Below are positions 2,038 to 29,200 of a DNA stretch of 41,633 nt, one piece after another. Made by a program: the position numbers and the translations under genes. The notes below the pieces were generated by a model. That model saw only the letters and a list, made by a program, of their open reading frames with translations. It was not told where the DNA came from and did no database searches. This DNA is from a virus (taxonomy: Duplodnaviria; Caudoviricetes): positions 1-41,633 of the IMG/VR virus record IMGVR_UViG_3300037991_002153; one strand, written 5' to 3'. Positions within the stretch are counted from its first letter, which is position 1; the number at the start of each line of letters is the position of its first letter.

Positions 2038-2240
2038 CCGCTTAGTAAAAGTAGTACCCGCCCAGCAAAACTTCCAAAAATTTTAAAAAAAAATATTAGT
2101 ATGTGTGTTTCTTTTTTATTTGTATAGGTCGCCCCCCCATTTGCAAATCAGGTTAGAAAAATTACGTTGACTTTTTGCTTTTTGTTTTGAGCACGTGACA
2201 AAATTAATTTACATAATTTAAAATAAATTGTAAAAAAAAT

Positions 2241-2268
2241 GGAACTTTTTGGAACTAGTAGCGTACAA
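2241..2268 (+). promoter_or_regulatory. Early promoter P1 (GGAAC-N17-GTACAA)
   Basis: Member of a 7-copy motif with invariant 17-nt spacer; upstream of the DUF932-like gene. Confidence 0.7.
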
Positions 2269-2386
2269 TTAATGTAATCAACATTAATTGATTTGCTTTT
2301 TGAAAATTTAGTTATCACCTGATCGTAGAAAGAAGGGTGATACATATCTTAATTAATTCTTAACTAACAAAAAGGAAAGGTACATT

Positions 2387-3349
2387 ATGTATACAAATAA
2401 CAATGACATAACAAATCTAGTAACAGTTACACAAAGCAACCAAGGCTCAGAAATAGCTGGTAACTTTGATAACATCTACGATAACAAACTAAATCCATTT
2501 ACAGAAGTTGTTAAGGTTCCCTTAAGTACTAATGATGGTGGATACTCTACGGCTTTTTCTGTAAGACTCCCAGAGTTAAACAAGGAAGTTGGAGTTGTTA
2601 AAAAGGAGTATATGGCTGTTAGTAATATAGATATCCATAAAGTTGGTCAGGCTATTAGGAATCAATCTAATATGCAATGGAAACATCTCAAATGTTTTTT
2701 TGACGGTAAGGTATTTAAAAACCAATATATTTGTGAGGATTCTGGATTACAAAAACAAGTGCCAAACATGGAAGCTGGGGACGTTATCGGAATAGTTATG
2801 GAAGAGCAAAACAGTTATGATAGTTCTGTAAGTGCTGGAATATTCTTTAGCTTTTTAAGGTTAGTTTGTACAAATGGAATGACCTCTAAAAAATATGGCT
2901 TTGGTCATACATTCAAACATACTCAAAAGAATATTGACTGGGAAGATAGTATCTACAGATCAGTTGGCCTGTTAAATGGTCAGACGCCTGAAGTAAAGTT
3001 GGATCAGTTTGTTCAGGCCTGTGGTCATTTACACAAATCAATTGACTTTCAGGATCTGGACATACTTACACATAGTAGGAAATATCTCAGAAATCTACCA
3101 GCTACACAGTATGGCCAGATTATTAGAAATATGATGCTAGCCAGAGAGAGCAACGGTGATCCAAAGTATGGTCACAATAACAGTAGTTACACTGGTTGGG
3201 ACTTGCTAAACTCAGGAACTGAGATACTAACTCACAAAAACAAAGCTACTCAGGGCAATATGAGAAACAATATCATAATGACTGACGGAATGTTACAATA
3301 TGGTATCGATCAACAAGATAATGAAAGGTTGTATAAATCATTCAATTAA
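2387..3349 (+). CDS. DUF932-family protein
   Basis: Signature NSYDSSVSAGIFFSFLRLVCTNGM...HT and C-terminal TGWDLLNSGTEILTH; strong RBS AAAGGAAAGG; own promoter and terminator. Confidence 0.8.
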   Translation: MYTNNNDITNLVTVTQSNQGSEIAGNFDNIYDNKLNPFTEVVKVPLSTNDGGYSTAFSVRLPELNKEVGVVKKEYMAVSNIDIHKVGQAIRNQSNMQWKHLKCFFDGKVFKNQYICEDSGLQKQVPNMEAGDVIGIVMEEQNSYDSSVSAGIFFSFLRLVCTNGMTSKKYGFGHTFKHTQKNIDWEDSIYRSVGLLNGQTPEVKLDQFVQACGHLHKSIDFQDLDILTHSRKYLRNLPATQYGQIIRNMMLARESNGDPKYGHNNSSYTGWDLLNSGTEILTHKNKATQGNMRNNIIMTDGMLQYGIDQQDNERLYKSFN

Positions 3350-3366
3350 CACAGTTGAGGAAAATG

Positions 3367-3394
3367 GGGAGCCGAAAGGCTCCCTTTTTTTTTT
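3367..3394 (+). terminator. Rho-independent terminator
   Basis: GGGAGCC-GAAA-GGCTCCC hairpin followed by T10. Confidence 0.93.
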
Positions 3395-3428
3395 ATAAAA
3401 ATTTTAAAAATTTATTTTTTATATTATT

Positions 3429-3540
3429 TTGTGCACGTAAGTAGGTTGTGCACGTAAGTAGAATTTACATAAATTAACTTATTTCTATAAAGTTTGTGCA
3501 CGTAGGTAGTTTATTTAATATTGTGCACGTACGTAGGTAG
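3429..3540. repeat. Four direct repeats TTGTGCACGTA(A/G)GTAG
   Basis: Copies at 3429-3444, 3446-3461, 3494-3509, 3521-3540 (last has a 4-bp internal duplication), within AT-rich intergenic DNA. Confidence 0.9.
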
Positions 3541-3675
3541 ATTTCACGCCTTATTATGATATATGTATCTTAAATACATTTACACAAATTAGTATATATT
3601 ATATAAGTTCTAAATATAATACACAACGCAACACACAACCCCCCGAAAAAATAATTAATTTTTTTTATTTATTTT

Positions 3676-3703
3676 GGAACCTTTTTAAATATTTAGAGTA
3701 TAC
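3676..3703 (+). promoter_or_regulatory. Early promoter P2 (GGAAC-N17-GTATAC)
   Basis: 7-copy motif; 30 nt upstream of ORF 3734. Confidence 0.75.
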
Positions 3704-3733
3704 TATATATAACAATTAACACGGGGTTTTAAA

Positions 3734-3928
3734 ATGTATTTTAAATATAGAAAAGAAATATATAAATATGTAGAACTAGATAAAAAATATAGCAATCATA
3801 AAAAACAAGTTTGGGTTTGGTTGGAGTCTCTAGAGTCAAAAAGAGACCTTGCAAGACAAGGAAAACTAAAAAGGTTCTGTGTTCCGTTTGCATTGTGTGA
3901 GTACAAACCAAATTATAAAATAAATTAA
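3734..3928 (+). CDS. Hypothetical early protein
   Basis: Preceded by motif promoter and GGGGT RBS. Confidence 0.7.
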   Translation: MYFKYRKEIYKYVELDKKYSNHKKQVWVWLESLESKRDLARQGKLKRFCVPFALCEYKPNYKIN

Positions 3929-3937
3929 AAAAACTTT

Positions 3938-3965
3938 GGAACAATTTATTAATTAATTAGTATAA
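3938..3965 (+). promoter_or_regulatory. Early promoter P3 (GGAAC-N17-GTATAA)
   Basis: 7-copy motif; upstream of ORF 4001. Confidence 0.8.
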
Positions 3966-4000
3966 GTAATATAAACAATAAAATAATATAGGGGTATGTT

Positions 4001-4642
4001 ATGAATAAAAAAACAGCTATGCAGATTGTAGGCAGTGGTTTAAGTAATACAGAAAAAATGCCGTCATATAGTTTTAACTTGTCGGCAAAAGATTGTGTAA
4101 CAGGATCAAAGCTAGTAAATGTAGAAGGTTCTGTATGTGAGGGGTGTTATGCATTAAAAGGTAATTATGTAAGATATAAACACGTAGACAAGTTGAGACC
4201 CAAAACCCTTAAATTAAAAGAGATTCTTTGGGTGAATGCTATGGTTTATTTGATACAGAACCAAGGGAACCAAAAAGATAAAAATTATTTTAGGTGGCAC
4301 GATTCAGGGGATTTACAGAACGTAACTCATTTACAGAAAATAGTTGAAGTGTGTAAAAGAACACCAAATGTAAAACATTGGTTACCGACAAGGGAATATA
4401 AATTTGTTACCGATTATATTAAGACATATGGAGACCTGCCTAAGAATTTAATTATAAGGTTGTCATCTCATATGAACGACACAAAACCACCTAAGATACA
4501 GAACTTAAACACATCCACAGTACATAAAAATAAACAGGCGTTAGGTGTCGAGTGTCCCTCATATAAAAATAAGGGTAAATGTGGAGATTGTAGGATGTGT
4601 TGGAATTCTAAGATAGATAACATATCGTATAAGTGGCATTAA
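4001..4642 (+). CDS. GP88-family (gene product 88-like) Cys-rich protein
   Basis: KMPSYSFNLSAKDCVTGS...CEGCYA, YFRWHDSGD, HWLPTRE, IRLS, CP...CGDCRMCW motifs. Confidence 0.8.
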   Translation: MNKKTAMQIVGSGLSNTEKMPSYSFNLSAKDCVTGSKLVNVEGSVCEGCYALKGNYVRYKHVDKLRPKTLKLKEILWVNAMVYLIQNQGNQKDKNYFRWHDSGDLQNVTHLQKIVEVCKRTPNVKHWLPTREYKFVTDYIKTYGDLPKNLIIRLSSHMNDTKPPKIQNLNTSTVHKNKQALGVECPSYKNKGKCGDCRMCWNSKIDNISYKWH

Positions 4643-4669
4643 TTTACAGAAATAAAATAAAAATATTTT

Positions 4670-4697
4670 GGAACTAATTAAAAAGACAAGCATATAA
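4670..4697 (+). promoter_or_regulatory. Early promoter P4 (GGAAC-N17-ATATAA)
   Basis: 7-copy motif with one mismatch in the -10; upstream of ORF 4727. Confidence 0.65.
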
Positions 4698-4726
4698 TTA
4701 TTAACAAAACAACTAAGGGGTTTAAA

Positions 4727-5065
4727 ATGTTATTAATGAAAAAACCTAAAGAGAGATATTTAAATCATTATAATGAACTATTAAACAAAACTAAGGGGTA
4801 TAAAATGAAACTAAGTAAAGAGCAAATAAAAGAAATAAAAGAGTTAACTCATTATAATAATCATACATTAGCCAGATTAGAAATAGCAAGAGCATTAAGA
4901 AGTAATACTCATATAAAATTTTACCAAGCTATTGATAACTTGCATAGTATATATGGACATTTACCAAGAGAGTTATCAATATTAAGGGATAAGATGGAGC
5001 CTAAGTTTGTAGACTTGCTAAGAAATAGATTAGAGAATTTTAAAGAAGTATACGGGGCTTTATAA
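4727..5065 (+). CDS. Hypothetical protein with two in-frame starts (4727, 4805)
   Basis: Each ATG is preceded by a near-identical CTAAGGGGT(T/A)TAAAATG leader. Confidence 0.75.
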   Translation: MLLMKKPKERYLNHYNELLNKTKGYKMKLSKEQIKEIKELTHYNNHTLARLEIARALRSNTHIKFYQAIDNLHSIYGHLPRELSILRDKMEPKFVDLLRNRLENFKEVYGAL

Positions 5066-5284
5066 ATGGATTGGGTTATAGAAAAACTAAATAGTGAAGT
5101 AATACGAAAGCAGATCAGGGACAGGAGCCAACACAAAAGAGAGGCTAGGTTACTTAAGTTTTGTAAGTTGTGTAAGCGAGTGTATCAGAAGGATTTTACT
5201 TCACCCAAGGACGTATATTATGATAGCTTATGTAGTTACAAATTACCTAGAGAAAATTGCCAAAAATGTAGGAGTGTAAAATGA
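5066..5284 (+). CDS. Small Zn-ribbon protein
   Basis: CKLC...CQKC; abuts neighbours in operon. Confidence 0.65.
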   Translation: MDWVIEKLNSEVIRKQIRDRSQHKREARLLKFCKLCKRVYQKDFTSPKDVYYDSLCSYKLPRENCQKCRSVK

Positions 5285-5475
5285 TTTTATATTTATTAGC
5301 TGAGTTGGAAAGAAAAATAGAGAGTATGTTTTCCTTAACTGAAGGTGCAAACGAGGATATGAGTAAACAAGATTTATTAATGGTTATTCGCAATTTATCT
5401 GATCGCATAGAACAAGCCGATAAGGACGTAAAAATAATCCTAAAGAAAAGAAAGTATTTTAGAAATGCCATATAA
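5281..5475 (+). CDS. Hypothetical protein
   Basis: AGGAG RBS; ATGA overlap with upstream gene. Confidence 0.65.
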   Translation: MILYLLAELERKIESMFSLTEGANEDMSKQDLLMVIRNLSDRIEQADKDVKIILKKRKYFRNAI

Positions 5476-5815
5476 AAATATTATAGATACCCTGATAAAG
5501 TATTATGATCTGAAAAGTAAGATAACTTACACAAATGATAATAACTTTGGTAACTACATAGCTGAGACAGACACAATAGTACTTCGTAAAAAGTATGATA
5601 ACTTACACGAATTTCTAATGTCAATCTTGCACGAGATAAAACACGCCTTAGATCGCAAAAGATTAGGTAGGCGTAAGTTTATTAAGAAATACAATCAAGC
5701 AGGGAATATGGCTATAAATCAAGGCTTAGATCCCTATGTTTATAATAAGTGGGAGATCAAGGCAGAAAGGTATGCAGAAAATAATTTTAAAAAGTGGGAA
5801 CATTTAATTAATTAA
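5465..5815 (+). CDS. Minimal zincin-like metallopeptidase (ImmA/IrrE-like HExxH)
   Basis: ILHEIKHALD motif with downstream NKWEIKAERYA third-ligand helix. Confidence 0.7.
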   Translation: MPYKNIIDTLIKYYDLKSKITYTNDNNFGNYIAETDTIVLRKKYDNLHEFLMSILHEIKHALDRKRLGRRKFIKKYNQAGNMAINQGLDPYVYNKWEIKAERYAENNFKKWEHLIN

Positions 5816-5824
5816 TGAGTATAA
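5797..5824 (+). promoter_or_regulatory. Early promoter P5 (GGAAC-N17-GTATAA)
   Basis: 7-copy motif; overlaps 3' end of ORF 5465. Confidence 0.8.
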
Positions 5825-5849
5825 TAGTAAAACAACAGGGGTAAATAAA

Positions 5850-6038
5850 ATGAAAGTAAAAGACCTAATTAAAAAGCTAGAACAAATAAGAGATAAAAAC
5901 TTACCTGTAGTAGTTGCAGACATTGAAGATAGTTCAGGTGATTTTCCTAATTATTGGGTGGAAGATATAGAGGAACACAAAACAGGGTCTAGTGGATATG
6001 AAATAGAAGGCGAAATAAGACTAGTAACGAGTCAATAA
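5850..6038 (+). CDS. Hypothetical early protein (MKVKDLIKKLE-type)
   Basis: Promoter plus GGGGTA RBS; N-terminus typical of small phage proteins. Confidence 0.8.
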   Translation: MKVKDLIKKLEQIRDKNLPVVVADIEDSSGDFPNYWVEDIEEHKTGSSGYEIEGEIRLVTSQ

Positions 6039-6065
6039 TAAAAACAACAAAAAGGAGAGTAAATA

Positions 6066-6341
6066 ATGAACATATTACACAAAATGGTTGATCCTCATAA
6101 CGTATTTGGATTTAACTACATACTAGAAAATAATGATTACTACATAGATATATCGTGTAAAAACGATGAAAATAGTAAATGGGTAAAAGATATTTATATC
6201 AATAAAAAGACTCACCCTGATGATGTAAGTATGCAAGAAAGAGAACTCGTGCTTGGTGAAAGTTATGAAGTTGTTATGGTAACGAATGAAGATATAAAAA
6301 TAGTAAAAGGTTGTAGGATTCCTTATTATGGTACAAAATAA
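6066..6341 (+). CDS. Hypothetical early protein
   Basis: AAAGGAG RBS. Confidence 0.75.
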   Translation: MNILHKMVDPHNVFGFNYILENNDYYIDISCKNDENSKWVKDIYINKKTHPDDVSMQERELVLGESYEVVMVTNEDIKIVKGCRIPYYGTK

Positions 6342-6344
6342 TTT

Positions 6345-6372
6345 GGAACTTTTTAAAGCTTGTAATGTATAA
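6345..6372 (+). promoter_or_regulatory. Early promoter P6 (GGAAC-N17-GTATAA)
   Basis: 7-copy motif; upstream of ORF 6401. Confidence 0.8.
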
Positions 6373-6400
6373 TAATAAACAAACAAAAAGGAGTTAAGTA

Positions 6401-6643
6401 ATGAATCGTGATAAGAAACTTGGCAAGGTTTACATTGACATAGACGAATCAGATGCTAATGAGTTAATGTATGAGGAGCGTGATTTTGACTGGTGTTTTC
6501 CAGTCTATGATAAAAACAATAAAAGAGTAGGTTATGTAGATGTTGCAATAGGTAGAACCATAACAGAGCCAGAAACTGAAATGCTAGAAGAAGTAGTTCG
6601 TTTAGCAGGAGATGGTGAAGGTAGACTAAAGGGAGAAAATTAA
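6401..6643 (+). CDS. Hypothetical acidic protein
   Basis: Promoter plus AAAGGAG RBS. Confidence 0.75.
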   Translation: MNRDKKLGKVYIDIDESDANELMYEERDFDWCFPVYDKNNKRVGYVDVAIGRTITEPETEMLEEVVRLAGDGEGRLKGEN

Positions 6644-6645
6644 TT

Positions 6646-6873
6646 ATGATAACAGATAGGGATATGATGCTAGATGAACTAGCTGATGAAATGTTTCCAA
6701 TGCTATTGGAACTTATAAGTGATCGTAACTTTTATGATACTTATATTAAGAAAGCGATCATAGAAGAATTAGTTGCAGGACATGATATAACTTACAGAGA
6801 TGCGAAAGATCTTGCCTATTCTTTCAGGCATACACTATTCGCTAGAATAAATAAGGGGGTAAAGAATGTATAG
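6646..6873 (+). CDS. Hypothetical protein
   Basis: GGGAG RBS; operonic spacing. Confidence 0.7.
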   Translation: MITDRDMMLDELADEMFPMLLELISDRNFYDTYIKKAIIEELVAGHDITYRDAKDLAYSFRHTLFARINKGVKNV

Positions 6874-7093
6874 TGATTGTTGTGGTTCAGTCGCTTGGAA
6901 TGATGATATTAGTGAGGATGGATGGGGTAGGTGCTTAGAATGTATGGAGCCTGCTGAGTTCCCATTAGAGCCAACGAAACAAGATATGATTGATAGTATT
7001 GAATCGTATCTAAAATCAGAACCAAGTGTAACTCGTACAGTTAAGAATGATTTACAGAAGTTAGTAAACGATATGAAAAAGGAGCGATATTAA
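6866..7093 (+). CDS. Small Zn-binding protein
   Basis: SDCCGS...CLECMEPAEF; GGGGGT RBS. Confidence 0.75.
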   Translation: MYSDCCGSVAWNDDISEDGWGRCLECMEPAEFPLEPTKQDMIDSIESYLKSEPSVTRTVKNDLQKLVNDMKKERY

Positions 7094-7094
7094 A

Positions 7095-7169
7095 ATGTTA
7101 AAACCAATTCTATTTTTAATTATAGGTATGTTGATCATAGCCTATTACAAATACAAGGAGATAAAATGA
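7095..7169 (+). CDS. 24-aa membrane microprotein MLKPILFLIIGMLIIAYYKYKEIK
   Basis: Below the ORF-track cutoff; AAGGAG RBS; fills the gap exactly with ATGA overlap to the next gene. Confidence 0.6.
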   Translation: MLKPILFLIIGMLIIAYYKYKEIK

Positions 7170-7384
7170 GTAAAGAAAAGGATACTACCCATAGAGCAAT
7201 ACTAAGAAGTAATCCTCATAAAATGGTAAAACTACCTAGAGAAGTAATAGAAGAATTAGGTTGGAAGATAGACGAGAAATTAATTGTTGAAGTATGTGAT
7301 GCTGGGAATATGGAAATGGAAGAATGGAGAGAGGTTGTAATAGTAAAAGAATCTGATAAAGATAAAATCTATAAGGAGATTTAA
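7166..7384 (+). CDS. AbrB/MazE/SpoVT-like DNA-binding protein
   Basis: MVKLPREVIEELGWKIDEKLIVEV matches the swapped-hairpin consensus (IPkei.e.LGl..Gd.l.v). Confidence 0.7.
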   Translation: MSKEKDTTHRAILRSNPHKMVKLPREVIEELGWKIDEKLIVEVCDAGNMEMEEWREVVIVKESDKDKIYKEI

Positions 7385-7386
7385 AT

Positions 7387-7734
7387 ATGAAATCTAAAGA
7401 TTATAAAAAGTTTAGGGAAGAATTTATTGAGGAAACTTTTGAATTGAGTGATGCAAAAAGAATCGAATATACAGAAGGGAATCAGGATATAGATGTGCAT
7501 ACAAATTTCAGAAGGATCGGAGATGAGTTAGGATTAAATCCAGTAAAGGTGTTAGCAGTTTATTTAATTAAACATTTCAAGTCGCTACTAACCTTTTTTA
7601 AATTAGGTCAAACATTTAGCAACGAGTCATTAAGATCAAGAGTAAGTGACATTGTAAACTACCTGATCTTATTACTTAGCTATTTGCATTACGAAGATAT
7701 GAAAGAAAGTGACGATAGTCCTGAGAATCGATAG
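7387..7734 (+). CDS. Nucleotide-modification-associated domain 1 (DUF1599/Nmad1, MazG-like helical fold)
   Basis: KRIEYT...DVHTNFRR...YLIKH...ESLRSRVSDIVNYLILL pattern. Confidence 0.65.
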   Translation: MKSKDYKKFREEFIEETFELSDAKRIEYTEGNQDIDVHTNFRRIGDELGLNPVKVLAVYLIKHFKSLLTFFKLGQTFSNESLRSRVSDIVNYLILLLSYLHYEDMKESDDSPENR

Positions 7735-7742
7735 GAGTTTAT

Positions 7743-7874
7743 ATGACTTGGTATTATATTATGGAAGTATTACAGACACAAGCATTTGATACAATTATAC
7801 AGACAATGATGTGGGTATCGTTATGGGTGTTTGTGATCATTAGGTTGAATAGAATAGAGGAAAAGATTAAATGA
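7743..7874 (+). CDS. 43-aa putative membrane protein
   Basis: AGGAG RBS; MTWYYIMEVLQTQAFDTIIQTMMWVSLWVFVIIRLNRIEEKIK; ATGA overlap with the next gene. Confidence 0.6.
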   Translation: MTWYYIMEVLQTQAFDTIIQTMMWVSLWVFVIIRLNRIEEKIK

Positions 7875-8059
7875 AGTGTTGGCATTGTGGCACAGAATTA
7901 ATATGGGGAGGAGATTTTACTTTTGAAGACTATGGCTTGGATGGAGAAGGGATTGTATCTAACTTATCTTGCCCAAATGAATTGTGTAAAGCATATGTAG
8001 AAGTATACTTAGAACTTAAAGATGAAGAAGATAAAGACGATAATTGCGAAAAGGATTGA
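7871..8059 (+). CDS. Small Zn-ribbon protein
   Basis: MKCWHCGTELIWGGD...NLSCPNELC. Confidence 0.75.
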   Translation: MKCWHCGTELIWGGDFTFEDYGLDGEGIVSNLSCPNELCKAYVEVYLELKDEEDKDDNCEKD

Positions 8060-8258
8060 CTATGTCAAGTGCAAGATATGTGAAAGGAATACTGATTGTT
8101 CTTTGATTGATATGGATAGATGTGTGTGTTACGATTGCATTATACGATTAAGATATGATAGAGAACTGGAAGAGGAGAAGCAAGAACCATCACCAATTAG
8201 TGAAAAGGATTTTATACAACTCTTAATGATTCTCAGGGAAGGGCAAGATCCTTGTTAA
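8022..8258 (+). CDS. Small Zn-finger protein
   Basis: CKIC...CYDC. Confidence 0.55.
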   Translation: MKKIKTIIAKRIDYVKCKICERNTDCSLIDMDRCVCYDCIIRLRYDRELEEEKQEPSPISEKDFIQLLMILREGQDPC

Positions 8259-8327
8259 TTATTTCCTATGATATAACACTTTTTTTTTATAAATTTAAGA
8301 ATCGAATTGTTCAAACTGGGGTAAGTT

Positions 8328-8831
8328 ATGAAAGTCTGTTCTACTTGTAAAGTGTCAAAGCCTAAGCGAGATTTTTACAGAAACAAGTCAAAGAAAGATG
8401 GCAGACAATACTCTTGTAAGCAATGTCAAAAGAATTATCATAATAATAAATGGTATGTAGATAATAAAAAGAAAAGAGTGAAACAAGTTTACAAGACGAA
8501 ACTACATAGAAAAAGAGTCAGCTACAGAATGATTATAGAACATTACTTTTCTAAGGGTTGTGTTGATTGTGGGGAAAAGGATGTCAGGGTATTAGAATTT
8601 GATCATGTAAGGGGTACAAAACGAAGGTTTAAGAACAGGAGGGGTGAAGGTGTTGCCTATCTTGTAAGATGTGGATATGCATGGCCCTCGATTAAAAAAG
8701 AAATAGACAAGTGTGAAGTAAGATGTTGTAATTGTCATAAGCTAAAAACATTTAAACAGTTTAACTATTTAAAAGATTTACAAGATATTTATAAAGAATA
8801 TTTAGAAAGTTTGGAACAAAGTAAAAGCTAG
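8328..8831 (+). CDS. HNH endonuclease with N-terminal Zn finger
   Basis: CSTC...CKQC finger; CVDCGE...LEFDHV...CEVRCCNCH HNH core; GGGGTA RBS. Confidence 0.85.
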   Translation: MKVCSTCKVSKPKRDFYRNKSKKDGRQYSCKQCQKNYHNNKWYVDNKKKRVKQVYKTKLHRKRVSYRMIIEHYFSKGCVDCGEKDVRVLEFDHVRGTKRRFKNRRGEGVAYLVRCGYAWPSIKKEIDKCEVRCCNCHKLKTFKQFNYLKDLQDIYKEYLESLEQSKS

Positions 8832-8840
8832 TGAGTATAA
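8813..8840 (+). promoter_or_regulatory. Early/middle promoter P7 (GGAAC-N17-GTATAA)
   Basis: 7-copy motif; likely drives ORFs 8869, 9080, the structured RNA and the recombination genes. Confidence 0.8.
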
Positions 8841-8868
8841 GAGTCAATAAAACAAATAAAGGAATGAA

Positions 8869-9114
8869 ATGTTTTCAAAATTAAACGAAGTAAAAACATT
8901 AATTAGAAAAGATATAAACAATCTAGAAGATGACTGGAGTAACAATCCACAGAACGATTATTACTTTGGAGAAATATGTGGCTTAAATAGGGCATTGGGA
9001 TATATCCTTAGAGTAGAAGCTAGGGCATATACAGATCTAGATAAATGGGCTGAAACATTACAACAAGGAAAGGATAAACATGAACATAGAAATAGGAAAG
9101 ATGCAGGACATTAG
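8869..9114 (+). CDS. Hypothetical protein
   Basis: Promoter plus AAAGGA RBS. Confidence 0.7.
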   Translation: MFSKLNEVKTLIRKDINNLEDDWSNNPQNDYYFGEICGLNRALGYILRVEARAYTDLDKWAETLQQGKDKHEHRNRKDAGH

Positions 9115-9283
9115 TATACATGATGTAAGTTCTGTAGAACTTGATCAGGTATCACAAAGTTCTTCAAGTATTATGAGAGATAAATACTTTACGACCTTAA
9201 CCGTCAAGACAAAAGAAGGTCAGATAATAGATATTAGCTTATGGTCTGAACATAAAAACATCTTAAACAAAATAAGCAAATAA
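9080..9283 (+). CDS. Hypothetical protein
   Basis: AAGGA RBS. Confidence 0.7.
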   Translation: MNIEIGKMQDISIHDVSSVELDQVSQSSSSIMRDKYFTTLTVKTKEGQIIDISLWSEHKNILNKISK

Positions 9284-9287
9284 ATGA

Positions 9288-9377
9288 TTAAGGGCGAGTA
9301 CCTCATGGTCTGGTTAATTTACCTTTTTGTGCTAGACCATTCCGCAACTACAACATACCCCAAATACTCGCCCTTAA
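9288..9377 (+). ncRNA. Putative structured small RNA with anti-RBS loops
   Basis: Perfect 13-bp closing stem TTAAGGGCGAGTA/TACTCGCCCTTAA; inner 10-bp stem 9305-9314/9331-9340 with two G-U pairs (favours + strand); exposed CCTTTTTGT and AACATACCCC complementary to early-gene RBSs. Confidence 0.7.
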
Positions 9378-9394
9378 AATTTTAAAGAAATACT

Positions 9395-10123
9395 ATGATA
9401 AATATTGAAAAGATTTATAAAAACTGGTTAAAAAAGAAGAATACTTTACATTTTAAGAATCGTTATCAGGGACATGAAAAATGGTTTCATGCTTCTAGTT
9501 CTGGAATGTGTATGAGAAAACATTATTTTCAGCACGTTGCAGAGGTCAAGCCAAAAGAAGTAGATGATGATACGTTAAAGTTATTTCGCTTAGGAGATCT
9601 GGTGCATGAAGATATTCAGGGAGCCTTAACAGATTATGCATTGACTACTGGATCTCAGTTATTAATTGAACGTGAGATACAACTACCAGAGGTAAATGTC
9701 AGGGGATTTTTAGATGTATTATTGATTGATGATGGAGCGTTAGTTGATATTAAAACTTGCAATGCTTGGAAGTGGAAAATGTTGTTTGGCCGCAACCCAG
9801 ATCCTAACCCTGCCGACAACTACAATTTACAACTTGGTACATATGGATGGTGGTATGAAGAAGAATCTGGGAACAAATTAAATAAACTGTCGTTACTATA
9901 CTATAACAAAGATAATTCCAGAATGAAAGAGAAGGTAGTGTCAGTGGATTACATTGATAAAGCAAAAGAATATTGGAGAAATGTAAATAAGATTTTTAAA
10001 ACAGGTAATCCACCTATCGAACTTGGAGTTGCTCCTGTATATAAATGGGAATGTAATATAAAGTATTGCAACTTCTATCAGGTTTGTGGCGGTGGATACA
10101 AAGAGGAAGGAGTCGATTTATGA
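9395..10123 (+). CDS. Cas4/RecB-like PD-(D/E)xK exonuclease (standalone)
   Basis: CMRK, G...H, GFLDVLL...DIKT, QLGTY, C-terminal WECNIKYCNFYQVC (Fe-S cysteines). Confidence 0.88.
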   Translation: MINIEKIYKNWLKKKNTLHFKNRYQGHEKWFHASSSGMCMRKHYFQHVAEVKPKEVDDDTLKLFRLGDLVHEDIQGALTDYALTTGSQLLIEREIQLPEVNVRGFLDVLLIDDGALVDIKTCNAWKWKMLFGRNPDPNPADNYNLQLGTYGWWYEEESGNKLNKLSLLYYNKDNSRMKEKVVSVDYIDKAKEYWRNVNKIFKTGNPPIELGVAPVYKWECNIKYCNFYQVCGGGYKEEGVDL

Positions 10124-10530
10124 GCGACAATAAAAAACCCGATTGGGACAAGATAACTGAAGGTAAGATAAGGCATGGTGTAGCCGTTGCCTTCATAGAG
10201 AAAGGACATGAACTAACACCAGATAACATGAAAACTATGGAGAAGTGGGTGCAGTTTATTATACATGGTTATCATGGTATCAAGGAAGCCTTAGATAAAA
10301 ACAATGTTGTAAAAGAAGAAAAACTTCTTAAGAAGATTGTTGATAAGTTTGATGGGGAGATCATTAAACAGACTGATGAAGAGTATATCAAAGAGCAGAT
10401 AGAAAAGAGTGTCGTTGGTCTTAAGGCTCAGGATAAAAACAAGGTTCTGTATCAGTTAAAGAATGGTGCAATTACACTTGATAACCTTCAGGCTTGTCTT
10501 GATAGAATTGAAGTGATGCAATCTAGATAA
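10120..10530 (+). CDS. Hypothetical protein of the recombination module (start revised to 10120, MSDNKKPDW...)
   Basis: AAGGAG RBS and ATGA overlap with the Cas4-like gene. Confidence 0.7.
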   Translation: MSDNKKPDWDKITEGKIRHGVAVAFIEKGHELTPDNMKTMEKWVQFIIHGYHGIKEALDKNNVVKEEKLLKKIVDKFDGEIIKQTDEEYIKEQIEKSVVGLKAQDKNKVLYQLKNGAITLDNLQACLDRIEVMQSR

Positions 10531-12181: not shown

Positions 12182-12347
12182 TAAACAGTTAAGCATTAGA
12201 GAAGTCATTAGGATTTACAAAAAACTTCTTAAAGAAGAAAAGATAAGCCAGTTTGGTTCGGGATACAGAAGAATGCGAACCTTAGAAACTATCTTAAGAG
12301 AAAACAAAACGTGGGCTAGGTATGAAAAACATAACACAAGAATGTGA
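12168..12347 (+). CDS. 59-aa hypothetical protein
   Basis: Open frame MPSNDKQLSIREVIRIYKKLL...; fills the gap between genes. Confidence 0.55.
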   Translation: MPSNDKQLSIREVIRIYKKLLKEEKISQFGSGYRRMRTLETILRENKTWARYEKHNTRM

Positions 12348-12409
12348 GATGACAAACAAAACCGTTGGCTGGTTAGTTCATCTTAGCCCACAAAAATAAG
12401 GAGATCAGA

Positions 12410-26212: not shown

Positions 26213-29200
26213 CTATTTAAGTTTGTTTTCTAATTCTGTTACTTTTGCTGATAACTCTTGTATTGCTTTTACTAAGGTAGGAATTAATGCTGTTTCTCCC
26301 AGCATTTGCATACCATCCTTATTTTCTTTCCACATTGGAAATTTTGAATGTCCAGCTTTATCCATAGACTCCTTAACTTCTTGAGCAATAAACCCATAAT
26401 TAACTGCATCTGGATTTATCCTTTTTGTTTTTTTAGGATTATATTGTTCAAATTCTTTTGGATATTCACTTGGAGCTTTTTTATTAAAAGTAACTGGCTT
26501 TAAATCGTTTACAAATTGTAAACCTAAATCTAAAGGCTTAATATTTTTCTTAATTCTCTTATCAGAAGAATGAGTCCAAGTAGCGTTTTCTCCAAAATCA
26601 TTAGTAATAAAATCTGAATCAACACCTATTCTTATTGTTTCAGTTCCACCACCAGCTAAATTATCTGTACCAGCCTTTAAAACAATTTCATCTGTAACAT
26701 CAGCGGCAGATGCTTGAGCAGATGCACCAATTTGAGTATTCCCAGAGCCAGTAGTTATATTGCTTCCACTACTATATCCAAATAGTGTATTTCTTGAACC
26801 AGTTGTAATTGTTTGACCAGCTCTAAATCCAAATAAAGAAGAGTAAGATGGTCCATTCCAACTATCACTCATAGCTGTTTCAGAACCTACTGCTGTATTA
26901 CCAACAGATTGAGTATTCGCCCATTGACCTCCACCAGATAAATAACCAATAAAGGTATTATCATTAGAGCCATCAGATGTAGTACCACCAACACTATTTT
27001 GCATTGAGCCATATCCAACAGCCGTGTTTCTACTACCATCAACTATTTCACTTATGGATTGATAACCAATGGCTGTATTTGCAGAACCACTTGTAAGGCT
27101 AAATAAAGCTTTTCTACCTATAGCTGTTGTTCCATTTGTTCCAGTAGTTGTTGAAGAAGAACCTTTAAAAGCGGCATAACCAACAGCAGTAGCATCTTGA
27201 ACAGTAGCAGTTGTTATTCCACCCATAGTTTCTCCACCTATTGCGACATTTGTATGAGCAGTTGTGGTGTTTTGCATAGCACTTCTACCTATTGCTGTAT
27301 TTGATTGCGCACTTACTGATGAAGATAAAGCTAAATATCCAACTACTGTATTAGAATCTCCATCAGTTATAGAAGCTCCAGCACTACTTCCTATTGCTAT
27401 ATTACCAGCTCCAGTAGTAATTCCTAATAATGCACTTTGACCAACTCCAACATTATTGCTATTACTTTGACCACTCGCCCCAAATCCAGCTCTGTAACCA
27501 AGAAAAGAATTTGAAGTCCCAGTAACATTATAAAATCCAGCTTGATACCCAATTCCCGTATTTTTAGTTAAGGCTTCACTTGCCATATTTTGACTAGAAA
27601 ACGCTCCAGCACCAACTGCTGTTGAGCCTTGCCCTAAATCATCTTGAGCCATTGTTGATGCACCTATTGCGACATTGTTGTCTCCATCAGTTAAAGCACC
27701 CCCTGCGGCTTGACCTACTAAGGTATTTGAATTTCCTACTCCTATTGCATCCCCAGCTTTATCTCCTACAATAGTATTTTCAGCTCCAGTAGTAATACTT
27801 AATCCCGCTTGACTTCCTATTGCTGTGTTAGTGTTTCCAGTAGTAACTGCAAATAAAGCTTTATAACCTATTCCAGTATTATCAGAATAAGTAATTGATC
27901 CAGCAGAAGATTCACCAGCACTTGCTCCTACCATTGTGTTTTGTTGTCCAGTATCAAGATGAAAAGAAGCATTTGAACCTACAGCTACATTCTTTCCTTC
28001 GCCATCACTTGAAGCTTCAAAATTGTATAATGCAGCATAACCGATAGCAGTATTAAAATCACCATCTACATTTGTTACAAAAGCTTGACTACCTACCGCT
28101 GTATTATACAACCCCGTTGTAATTTTTTCACCAGCAGTATAACCTATTAAAGTATTTTCTTGACCACTACTAATATCATTTCCAGCTAAATGACCAAAAA
28201 GAGAATTTCTATCTCCATTAGTTGTTAAAGCAGCTCCAGCTAAATTTCCAAAAGTTGTGTTATTAGCACCGCCATCATTATTTGATAATGAAATGCGAGA
28301 GTTGGTATCTAAAATAAAATTTCTTACAAACCCTGTTCCACCTACATTTGTAGCATTTCCAAATTGTATTTGAGCTGCATGGTCAAACATCACATATACA
28401 AAGCCATCTGCAACATTAGTATTAAAAAAATTACTAGCATCTTTTTGAAGTATTAAAGATGGTTGAGTTCCTTCTACACTTAAACCCGGAGTAAATCCAA
28501 AAGCAGTAGTACCACCAATGTTTACATTTCCAGAACTATCTATTCTAAGTCTCTCTGCATTATTTGTTGTAAAAGTCATTCTATTAGCACCATGGTCATA
28601 AATTATTCTACCAATATCAGCATCATCTGCATCTCCAAATTCAATATGGTTATTATATCCTCCAGTTGCTAGTAATCCGATTCCACCATCTGCACTACCA
28701 CTTGAAACTGTTAATTTTTGTGCTGGGCTTACAACCCCAATTCCTACATTTCCGCCTTCTTTTACTACTAAGCCATTAGAACCATAGACTGAAAGTTCAG
28801 CGTAGGCATCTGTTCCAGTATGATAGTAATAACTAAGAGCCAAAGCATCTCCAGCACTTGCGGCTTTTCCCATCCATTGTGCAACATATTCTCCATCAGC
28901 ATCTACTGCTCTATACAACTCTATAATACTATTAGAACTTGTAGCTGTGCTACTAGCATAAATAGCTGAACCTGTTCCTTGAGTATCAATGTTTAATGCA
29001 ACAGCATTTCCATTCTGGTCTATTTTTATGGCATTTCCAGTACCAGCATTGTCTACATTTATACCATTTCCACTCCCATTAATATCTAAGTTTAACCCAT
29101 AAGCAGTTCCATTTTGCTCTAGTGTCATTCCACTCTGAGCCGCATCTTGCCTAATATATAAAGGAACAGTTGCATTTGCGGCAGTATTTTCGTTTACAAT

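Follow-up and report, generated by a model that had tools for sequence, protein, structure and literature searches.

The question raised by this locus is what a folded element does between two genes of a virus genome, and on which messages it may act. The window, i.e., the whole stretch of DNA analysed here, is a 41.6-kb virus record in which the early and replication genes run on the + strand from 2387 to ~13357, with the portal, capsid and terminase genes on the - strand. The element is flanked by the stop of ORF 9080-9283 on its 5' side and the start of a Cas4-like gene on its 3' side, and no + strand reading frame runs across it. A sequence-only reading had taken it for a small RNA that would occlude the ribosome-binding sites (RBSs) of the phage's own early genes. 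The element, its parts and its neighbour are as follows.

9288..9377, + strand: structured RNA element with two helices (P1, P2) and two exposed antisense segments, assigned from fold, homologues, covariation and strand bias
9288..9300, + strand: P1 5' strand, with an initial GG run that is near-invariant across the family
9365..9377, + strand: P1 3' strand
9305..9340, + strand: P2 hairpin, 10 pairs; 6 of 6 modelled pairs covary
9315..9330, + strand: P2 loop, U-rich with a CC core, complementary to A-rich early RBSs
9341..9364, + strand: 3' linker, a conserved CAACUAC-type core followed by a variable 3' part
9395..10123, + strand: Cas4-like PD-(D/E)XK nuclease gene, directly 3' of the element; a neighbour, not a predicted target

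The closing stem P1 is the perfect 13-bp helix that had been reported, 9288-9300 being the exact reverse complement of 9365-9377. The inner hairpin (9305-9314/9331-9340) does contain the ten pairs ascribed to it, with the amendment that two of them are G·U. The element has a minimum free energy of -30.9 kcal/mol (z -5.5), equalled by 0 of 200 shuffles, and its unpaired parts, of which G makes up only 8%, stay open in the ensemble (predicted unpaired, 0.85 for the loop and 0.97 for the linker). A third anti-RBS patch, CCTC, had been proposed at 9301-9304; the motif is present there but is not conserved, and it was rejected as a third seed, the junction consisting of 0-7 nt of varied sequence in relatives. 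Rfam gave no match over the window element at E<=1, nor any at the gathering score for five related loci, and ARAGORN called 0 tRNA or tmRNA genes in the window. A scan for intrinsic terminators called none at the element, where P1 closes ~60 nt and, in most relatives, is followed by no U run. For RNA run X1, taken as a small share and over 8200-10200, contigs lie at 8552-8732 and 8855-9056 and the element is not covered, although contigs cannot prove absence. In a further sequencing run, X2, the one change within the element among the differences listed, A9366G, keeps its pair as U·G.

A search with the Cas4-like protein returned 68 viral loci, of which 65 were retained after three without upstream DNA were dropped. 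The element lies immediately 5' of the Cas4-like gene in 52 of these 65 (51 canonical copies and the variant L063) and is absent from that site in the other 13, all of them distant. A covariance model built from 33 sequences recovered copies on which it had not been trained (L037, L042, L055, L121 and L129); of 25 records searched with it, 23 had a single match per genome, weak in two cases. Among the matches listed, which account for 81 further metagenome loci out of 306 metagenome relatives overall, the element was found in 76 by the covariance model and in 78 by stem parsing. At least 61 distinct element sequences, 69-95 nt in length, were thus collected, and the CC core is present in 37 of 40 distinct loops (the loop of L060 is short and has no CC core). 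Covariation in relatives had been named as a check on the proposed structure, and both helices are indeed conserved with compensatory changes: 14 of 16 base pairs have changed on both sides in each of two alignments, both fitted to the model, and 92-93% of alignment cells pair, falling to ~50% after a one-column slide. In the inner pairs G·U outnumbers A·C by 42:3 and 44:6, which argues that the + strand is the folded RNA. RNAalifold on a plain MAFFT alignment recovered P1 only, because P2 was misaligned there. An earlier exact-stem pattern scan of viral contigs had returned 14 stretches, none related to the window. We conclude that the element is a real RNA family without an earlier name, with good support for its structure and moderate support for its targets.

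The distance from the end of P1 to the Cas4-like start is 17-29 nt in all canonical copies. In most relatives this interval carries a conserved CACATAC(C/T)AAAGGA tail that often forms a weak hairpin over the Shine-Dalgarno (SD) sequence and, by analogy, looks like a translational operator; neither the tail nor an SD before the nuclease gene is found in the window, L015 or L016. The Cas4-like gene start itself pairs poorly with both linker and loop. Several architectural variants were also seen. In L063 (9893-9978) a permuted version has two hairpins within P1 and an anti-SD patch in the second loop, and the same permuted two-hairpin version lies 5' of the Cas4-like gene in L281, L288 and L293. 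L254 (597-644) retains P1 alone, its interior gone through deletion or assembly error. A second closed-stem structure occurs 5' of the SSB-like gene (12410), at 12311-12391 in the window and at 13008-13105 in L017.

The target that is best conserved across the family is a gene that starts about 1 kb 5' of the element, and the linker is the segment predicted to pair with it. The sites concerned are listed here.

8328..8831, + strand: zinc-finger and HNH-like (bba-Me) nuclease gene, best-conserved predicted target
8316..8340, + strand: HNH translation-initiation region, predicted linker pairing site, -14.6 kcal/mol, rank 4 of 52 in the window genome
3991..4000, + strand: GP88 RBS, exact 10-nt linker complement, a window-specific target
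4795..4801, + strand: GGGGTA-type RBS (ATG 4805), predicted linker target
5838..5843, + strand: GGGGTA-type RBS (ATG 5850), predicted target
6856..6894, + strand: ORF 6866 RBS and first codons, best linker duplex in the window genome, -20.3 kcal/mol before target opening

The 8328 product matches PHROG 2255, 'HNH endonuclease', at E 9e-29, and has two N-terminal zinc-binding Cys pairs followed by a D-H ... C-x-N-C-H motif; the Cys pairs, D92-H93 and N135-C-H137 are invariant in 25 sequences. Its structural model is of high confidence (pLDDT 90), and the fold resembles those of Hpy99I (Z 5.2) and Gme HNH (Z 3.5) weakly; Foldseek returned no match at E<=0.001, and all VIA-align matches fell below Z 8. 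The protein is described here as a predicted HNH-like nuclease. Orthologues in L051, L054, L058, L076, L121, L129 and L131 start with TTG, GTG or possibly CTG/ATC, which suggests low expression. A conserved DNA motif lies 20-60 nt 5' of the HNH start in L023, L025, L047, L048, L059, L060, L062, L260 and L275; on the + strand it reads like an IHF site, and on the - strand it resembles a sigma-70 promoter with an 18-bp spacer, directed antisense into the early region.

The sequence-only reading had listed the 8328 gene as one of several targets; the HNH start emerges here as the best-conserved linker target. Clade by clade, the linker is complementary to the 8328 gene and its orthologues over the SD, the start codon or the first codons, with the variable 3' part following changes in the HNH start region and in some early RBSs. 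The sites facing their own linker complement read GGGGTA in the window, GGGGTG in L016 and GGAGTGA in L017. Between L022 and L029, a synonymous AGA -> AGG change in the HNH start is matched by a U -> C change in the linker; private linkers in L048, L049 and L035 go with matching private HNH starts; and in L285, retrieved after the hypothesis had been set, a novel linker is matched by an equally novel 8-nt site ahead of the start codon. Among 19 near-whole genomes, the HNH start ranks first of all starts for the linker in 8 and within the top 7 in 17, making it the top target family genome-wide (geometric-mean rank 0.049 vs 0.186 for the next). Own linker-HNH pairs are 3.1 kcal/mol better after double-centring of 19 representatives, whose relatedness inflates the p-value of this comparison. 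When linkers were swapped between sisters, in 16 pairs picked by hand from a quick tree, the own partner was favoured in 11 of 14 informative pairs (sign p 0.029, Wilcoxon 0.011), and the same test was null for five control genes and for the loop; the tree set excludes seven metagenome loci with a cut-off HNH start and four with permuted architecture.

There are exceptions to this pattern. HNH ranks only 49 of 60 in L076 and 11 of 58 in L038, the linker pairs weakly or 5' of the SD in the L040/L046/L051 clade, and in the window itself HNH comes only fourth of 52, after ORF 6866, a late gene and GP88. Because the CAACUAC core persists even in genomes in which it has no pairing with HNH (the window, L017 and L069), another partner may exist. 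All four GGGGTA motifs attributed to the ATGs at 4805, 5850, 6866 and 8328 are in place, and the 10-nt linker complement GGGGTATGTT occurs once, at 3991 (0.005 expected). For GP88, the exact complement thus stands as described, but the target is not conserved, GP88 being found in 3 of 65 loci, many of them truncated. In L034, L035, L047, L048, L049 and L052, an RBS GGAGATGTGTA before the ATG is common to apparently unrelated early genes; GGAGATGTGTA is the complement of the commonest linker and lies ~1.8-2.5 kb 5' of the Cas4-like gene, in 6 of 41 loci with >3 kb upstream.

The loop behaves as a broader segment. Its principal sites in the window are the following.

2367..2387, + strand: DUF932 RBS, predicted loop target on a separate transcription unit
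6047..6055, + strand: ORF 6066 RBS, 9-nt loop complement
6383..6391, + strand: ORF 6401 RBS, 9-nt loop complement

The 9-nt complement ACAAAAAGG is found on the + strand at 2367, 6047 and 6383, just as reported (0.18 expected in 2200-9300 by shuffling), and once on the - strand, at 26428; the expectations for both ACAAAAAGG and GGGGTATGTT concern motifs picked after the fact. At DUF932, both reported matches are real (11/12 over 2376-2387, 9 nt over 2367-2375), but they draw on identical loop bases and are hence alternatives and not one duplex; only in one clade does DUF932 rank first among loop targets. Across relatives, the loop prefers early over late starts in 17 of 19 genomes, by 1.3 kcal/mol on average, and in 15 of 18 its pairing is stronger at the promoter-proximal early genes. 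The control comparison that had been proposed gives a divided answer: early starts do exceed late ones, but the early bias beats composition-shuffled loops at the 5% level in only 6 of 18 genomes, so that part of it is composition. No conserved target family was found for the loop (best rank 0.21), which showed a weak preference for own over foreign starts (p 0.02-0.03 among 14 tests). An 11-12-nt loop match within the HNH coding sequence (L023, L291) was rejected as a target, since sisters that share the loop have lost the match through synonymous changes.

Counting exact matches of >=8 nt to loop or linker, 45 of 394 early starts are matched, 8 of 233 middle and 8 of 469 late starts, all gene starts coming from a simple caller of our own. 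With HNH removed, own early starts are matched more often than foreign ones (10.6 vs 5.9%, p 0.0013; late, 2.0 vs 2.8%), and energy-based own-vs-foreign tests agree (14 tests; early p 0.0015-0.025, middle and late null), the matrix and Fisher p-values being inflated because the genomes are related. The claim that the unpaired parts match early RBSs is upheld by these counts: the matching concerns early starts, not middle or late ones, and tracks each phage's own. Within the window, matches fall on 8 of the 16 early starts, as against 2 of 11 middle and 3 of 25 late ones, at thresholds fitted to the motifs of the sequence-only reading. Strong single matches are 15 nt at DUF932 of L017, 12 nt at the first gene of L018 and 10 nt in L058. 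Net duplex energies after target opening are modest (-5 to -12 kcal/mol); RNAcofold gave no net gain for any target and is uninformative here, since it cannot represent pairing to enclosed loops. By sequence comparison, then, the loop is a predicted generic, early-biased anti-RBS segment. Short GC hairpins, possibly processing or 5' protection sites, lie directly 5' of early RBSs in the early regions of G006, G015, G022, G024 and G025.

How such an RNA would be transcribed, and whether it could reach its targets in trans, depends on the promoter-like and terminator-like sites of the early region.

3676, 3938, 4670, 5797 and 6345 (3676..6371), + strand: five early GGAAC-N17-GTATA-type promoter-like motifs
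8813..8839, + strand: GGAAC-N17-GTATA promoter-like motif in the HNH 3' end, predicted source of the RNA-bearing transcript
3366..3393, + strand: intrinsic-terminator-like hairpin dividing DUF932 from the unit that reaches the RNA

The (T/G)GGAAC-N17-GTATA motif is repeated several times per genome, always within the early region or at the HNH end, and presumably resembles ECF-sigma promoters. The element has no adjoining promoter of its own; the putative one previously placed ahead of it at 8813 is borne out by conservation, the GGAAC motif being present in the HNH 3' end in 57 of 62 loci, against 1 of 394 background windows. The -10 of this HNH-end promoter reads GTTA in 48 cases and GTAT in 9, whereas early promoters have GTAT in 81 and GTTA in 12; the window HNH-end promoter has the early-type -10.

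On these grounds we consider the element to be probably a trans-acting antisense RNA, a multi-target anti-RBS anchored on the HNH-like gene. Transcription from the GGAAC promoter at the HNH 3' end would yield an RNA that includes the element together with recombination and replication genes; in most relatives this promoter differs from the early ones in its -10, and it may belong to a class that is tuned separately or fires later. Within the transcript, P1 would set the domain apart from flanking mRNA and might mark it for release by a host RNase; as both seeds are enclosed by helices, only an opened or cleaved P1 would lift the limit on duplex length. Linker pairing would cover the SD, the start codon or the first codons at the HNH-like nuclease gene and at some early genes, and the U-rich loop would pair with the A-rich leaders common to many early genes. 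Ribosome loading would thereby be blocked, a negative feedback in which the onset of replication-operon expression would be accompanied by lower output of the early small proteins and of the nuclease.

The same pairing could instead act in cis, early read-through transcripts folding back over 1-6 kb and closing their own HNH and early RBSs as soon as the element is transcribed, so that each message would have a limited translation window. Only one + strand terminator-like site lies between 2387 and 9400 (none was found in L030 or L046), so that promoters from 3676 on could read through, and HNH, the best-conserved target, lies just ~1 kb 5' of the element; cis pairing on read-through mRNA is thus possible for HNH and for genes from 3734 on. 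As a general account, however, it is unlikely: the longest matches (15 nt in L017, 12 in L018, 13 in L070, 10 in L074 and 9 at the window DUF932) lie 5' of a strong terminator-like site, which leaves only trans pairing there if the site terminates, and the conserved promoter between the HNH start and the element would leave many element copies without a cis target. We think it quite improbable that the RNA is directed mainly against host mRNAs, or serves host shut-off as a general anti-SD sponge, with phage matches that arise because phage early RBSs resemble strong host RBSs. The loop, a generic anti-RBS without a single phage target family, and the CAACUAC core, conserved beyond its phage partners, would fit such a role, but linker and HNH start covary phage by phage, and own early RBSs match better than foreign ones where late RBSs do not.

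A shade less probable again is a cis element of its own operon, i.e., a processing site, a stabiliser or a protein-bound leader of the Cas4-like gene, with the matches a pyrimidine-rich by-product. The spacing of 17-29 nt from P1 to the Cas4-like start in all canonical copies, and the conserved tail motif with its weak hairpin over the Cas4-like SD in most relatives, speak for this account; against it, distant-clade closing-stem elements with anti-RBS interiors adjoin other genes, and composition cannot yield phage-by-phage covariation with a start region 1 kb off. As the sequence data reveal pairing and not the sign of its effect, pairing at the same sites might also stabilise or activate messages or recruit an RNase, in place of a simple ribosome block. 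The HNH start region has weak structure of its own (opening cost 6-8 kcal/mol), which would agree with activation; yet the predicted duplexes span the SD, start codon and first codons, where small-RNA pairing usually represses, and we give this reading very little credence. Hardly credible at all is a DNA feature (a cruciform, an origin or a MITE-like insertion with TTAA ends) or chance. The window copy does have TTAA at both ends, but there is one copy per genome, G·U far exceeds A·C and both helices covary, and the MITE idea was discarded since the TTAA ends are not conserved in relatives.

In the distant clade, which has no element 5' of the nuclease gene, closing-stem elements lie on both sides of the HNH gene, whose start has no SD.

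L069, 6860-6910 and 7551-7619: closing-stem elements flanking the HNH gene
L074, 9033-9077 and 9716-9767: closing-stem elements flanking the HNH gene
L064, 8611-8683 and 9553-9623: closing-stem elements flanking the HNH gene
L065, 8385-8444 and 9313-9432: closing-stem elements flanking the HNH gene

The downstream element of L069/L070 is a bare stem enclosing 32 unpaired bases, in which the CACAACUAC core is kept, and it has a 13-nt match to the RBS of the first early gene. In L074/L075, where the homologous gene is 47% identical, its RBS and the element segment have both changed and still match over 10 nt, with more 9-nt matches on other early RBSs. The loop of the upstream element has 11- and 13-nt matches at the start of the first replication-operon gene. 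Elements of L064, L065 and L068 have anti-RBS interiors whose matches are less specific. Homology of the distant-clade elements to the window RNA is likely on sequence grounds but not firm, because the covariance model scores them weakly (E 0.3-0.9).

Many of the relatives bear marine survey names. The sole hint of a host is one all-phage contig in a Ca. Marinimicrobia MAG, with a nuclease of 68% identity and an element at E 4e-6; 400 further genomes of the Ca. Marinimicrobia phylum gave no second case, an earlier genome scan was likewise empty, and tblastn with the Cas4-like protein against GenBank phages found no relative. Integrase, repressor and antirepressor had no match in the 31 and 23 proteins scanned (small late ORFs lay outside the scan). 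The window also has AT-rich tandem repeats with repeated GCACGT motifs at 1848-2386 (from the terminase small subunit gene to DUF932) and at 3420-3540, possibly origin or packaging signals.

Early-gene shut-off in lytic phages is known mostly through proteins and mRNA decay. A wider picture, which we offer tentatively and with the balance somewhat against it, is that lytic marine phages of this family time infection by RNA alone, an RNA derived from the replication operon silencing the early region and HNH in trans, and that the sister clade has a two-RNA circuit, the whole being widespread. If so, in the sister clade the RNA downstream of HNH would silence early genes and the upstream RNA the first replication-operon gene, and the family, marine, widespread and uncultured, would hold a widespread, undescribed RNA route to early-gene shut-off. 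Being compact, with named targets and natural compensatory pairs, the RNA is testable in E. coli reporters without phage or host culture, and it offers a small closed-stem scaffold with two programmable seeds.

No description of the element was found in the literature searched, although the unnamed candidates of PMC10690425 may include it; DNAVirus_6063 from that source was considered as the same element and rejected, being a gut element. The closest known system is c4 RNA of P1/P7, 77 nt in length and cut from a longer transcript, in which two loops occlude RBSs (PMC5320573). Like c4, the element has a closing stem that starts with GG (G-C at these pairs in all 40 rows of one alignment and in 46 of 47 of the other), would lie within a longer transcript, presents two exposed segments towards RBSs of phage mRNAs, and has a specificity segment that differs between phages (PMC5320573). 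Three stem-loops, excision by RNase P and a role in lysogeny and immunity are c4's own (PMC5320573); the element, in contrast, has two helices and an open linker, lacks an Rfam match, and would target a whole early region together with an HNH gene. A second hairpin occurs in a few relatives only (L063, L281, L288 and L293). The element is thus not a c4 member, since the Rfam and three-stem tests fail.

With P22 sar, lambda OOP, aQ, DicF, PreS and VpdS the element would share the principle of a phage-encoded pairing RNA that controls translation, and DicF likewise derives from a polycistronic phage operon (PMC12197685). Those RNAs are, however, cis-antisense to one gene or host-directed, and come mostly from temperate phages; phage RNAs of proven function in general are mostly from temperate phages or act on the host, and the accessible part of that review describes none aimed at many of a phage's own early RBSs (PMC12197685). 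For virulent Pseudomonas phages, many ncRNA candidates without function have been reported (PMC10914365). SviR of the Vibrio satellite PLE is similar in being trans-acting and multi-target and in lowering phage gene translation, a likeness by description only, and differs in being encoded by a satellite against its helper phage (10.1101/2022.04.08.487710). In T-even phages, I-TevI, segB and mobE offer a parallel for the anchor target: RBS pairing there quiets a phage HNH or homing nuclease gene through hairpins that form locally, in cis, on the early and middle transcripts, the block being lifted by a late promoter (PMC2988022). Unlike those hairpins, the element described here lies 1 kb downstream of the HNH start and likely acts in trans.
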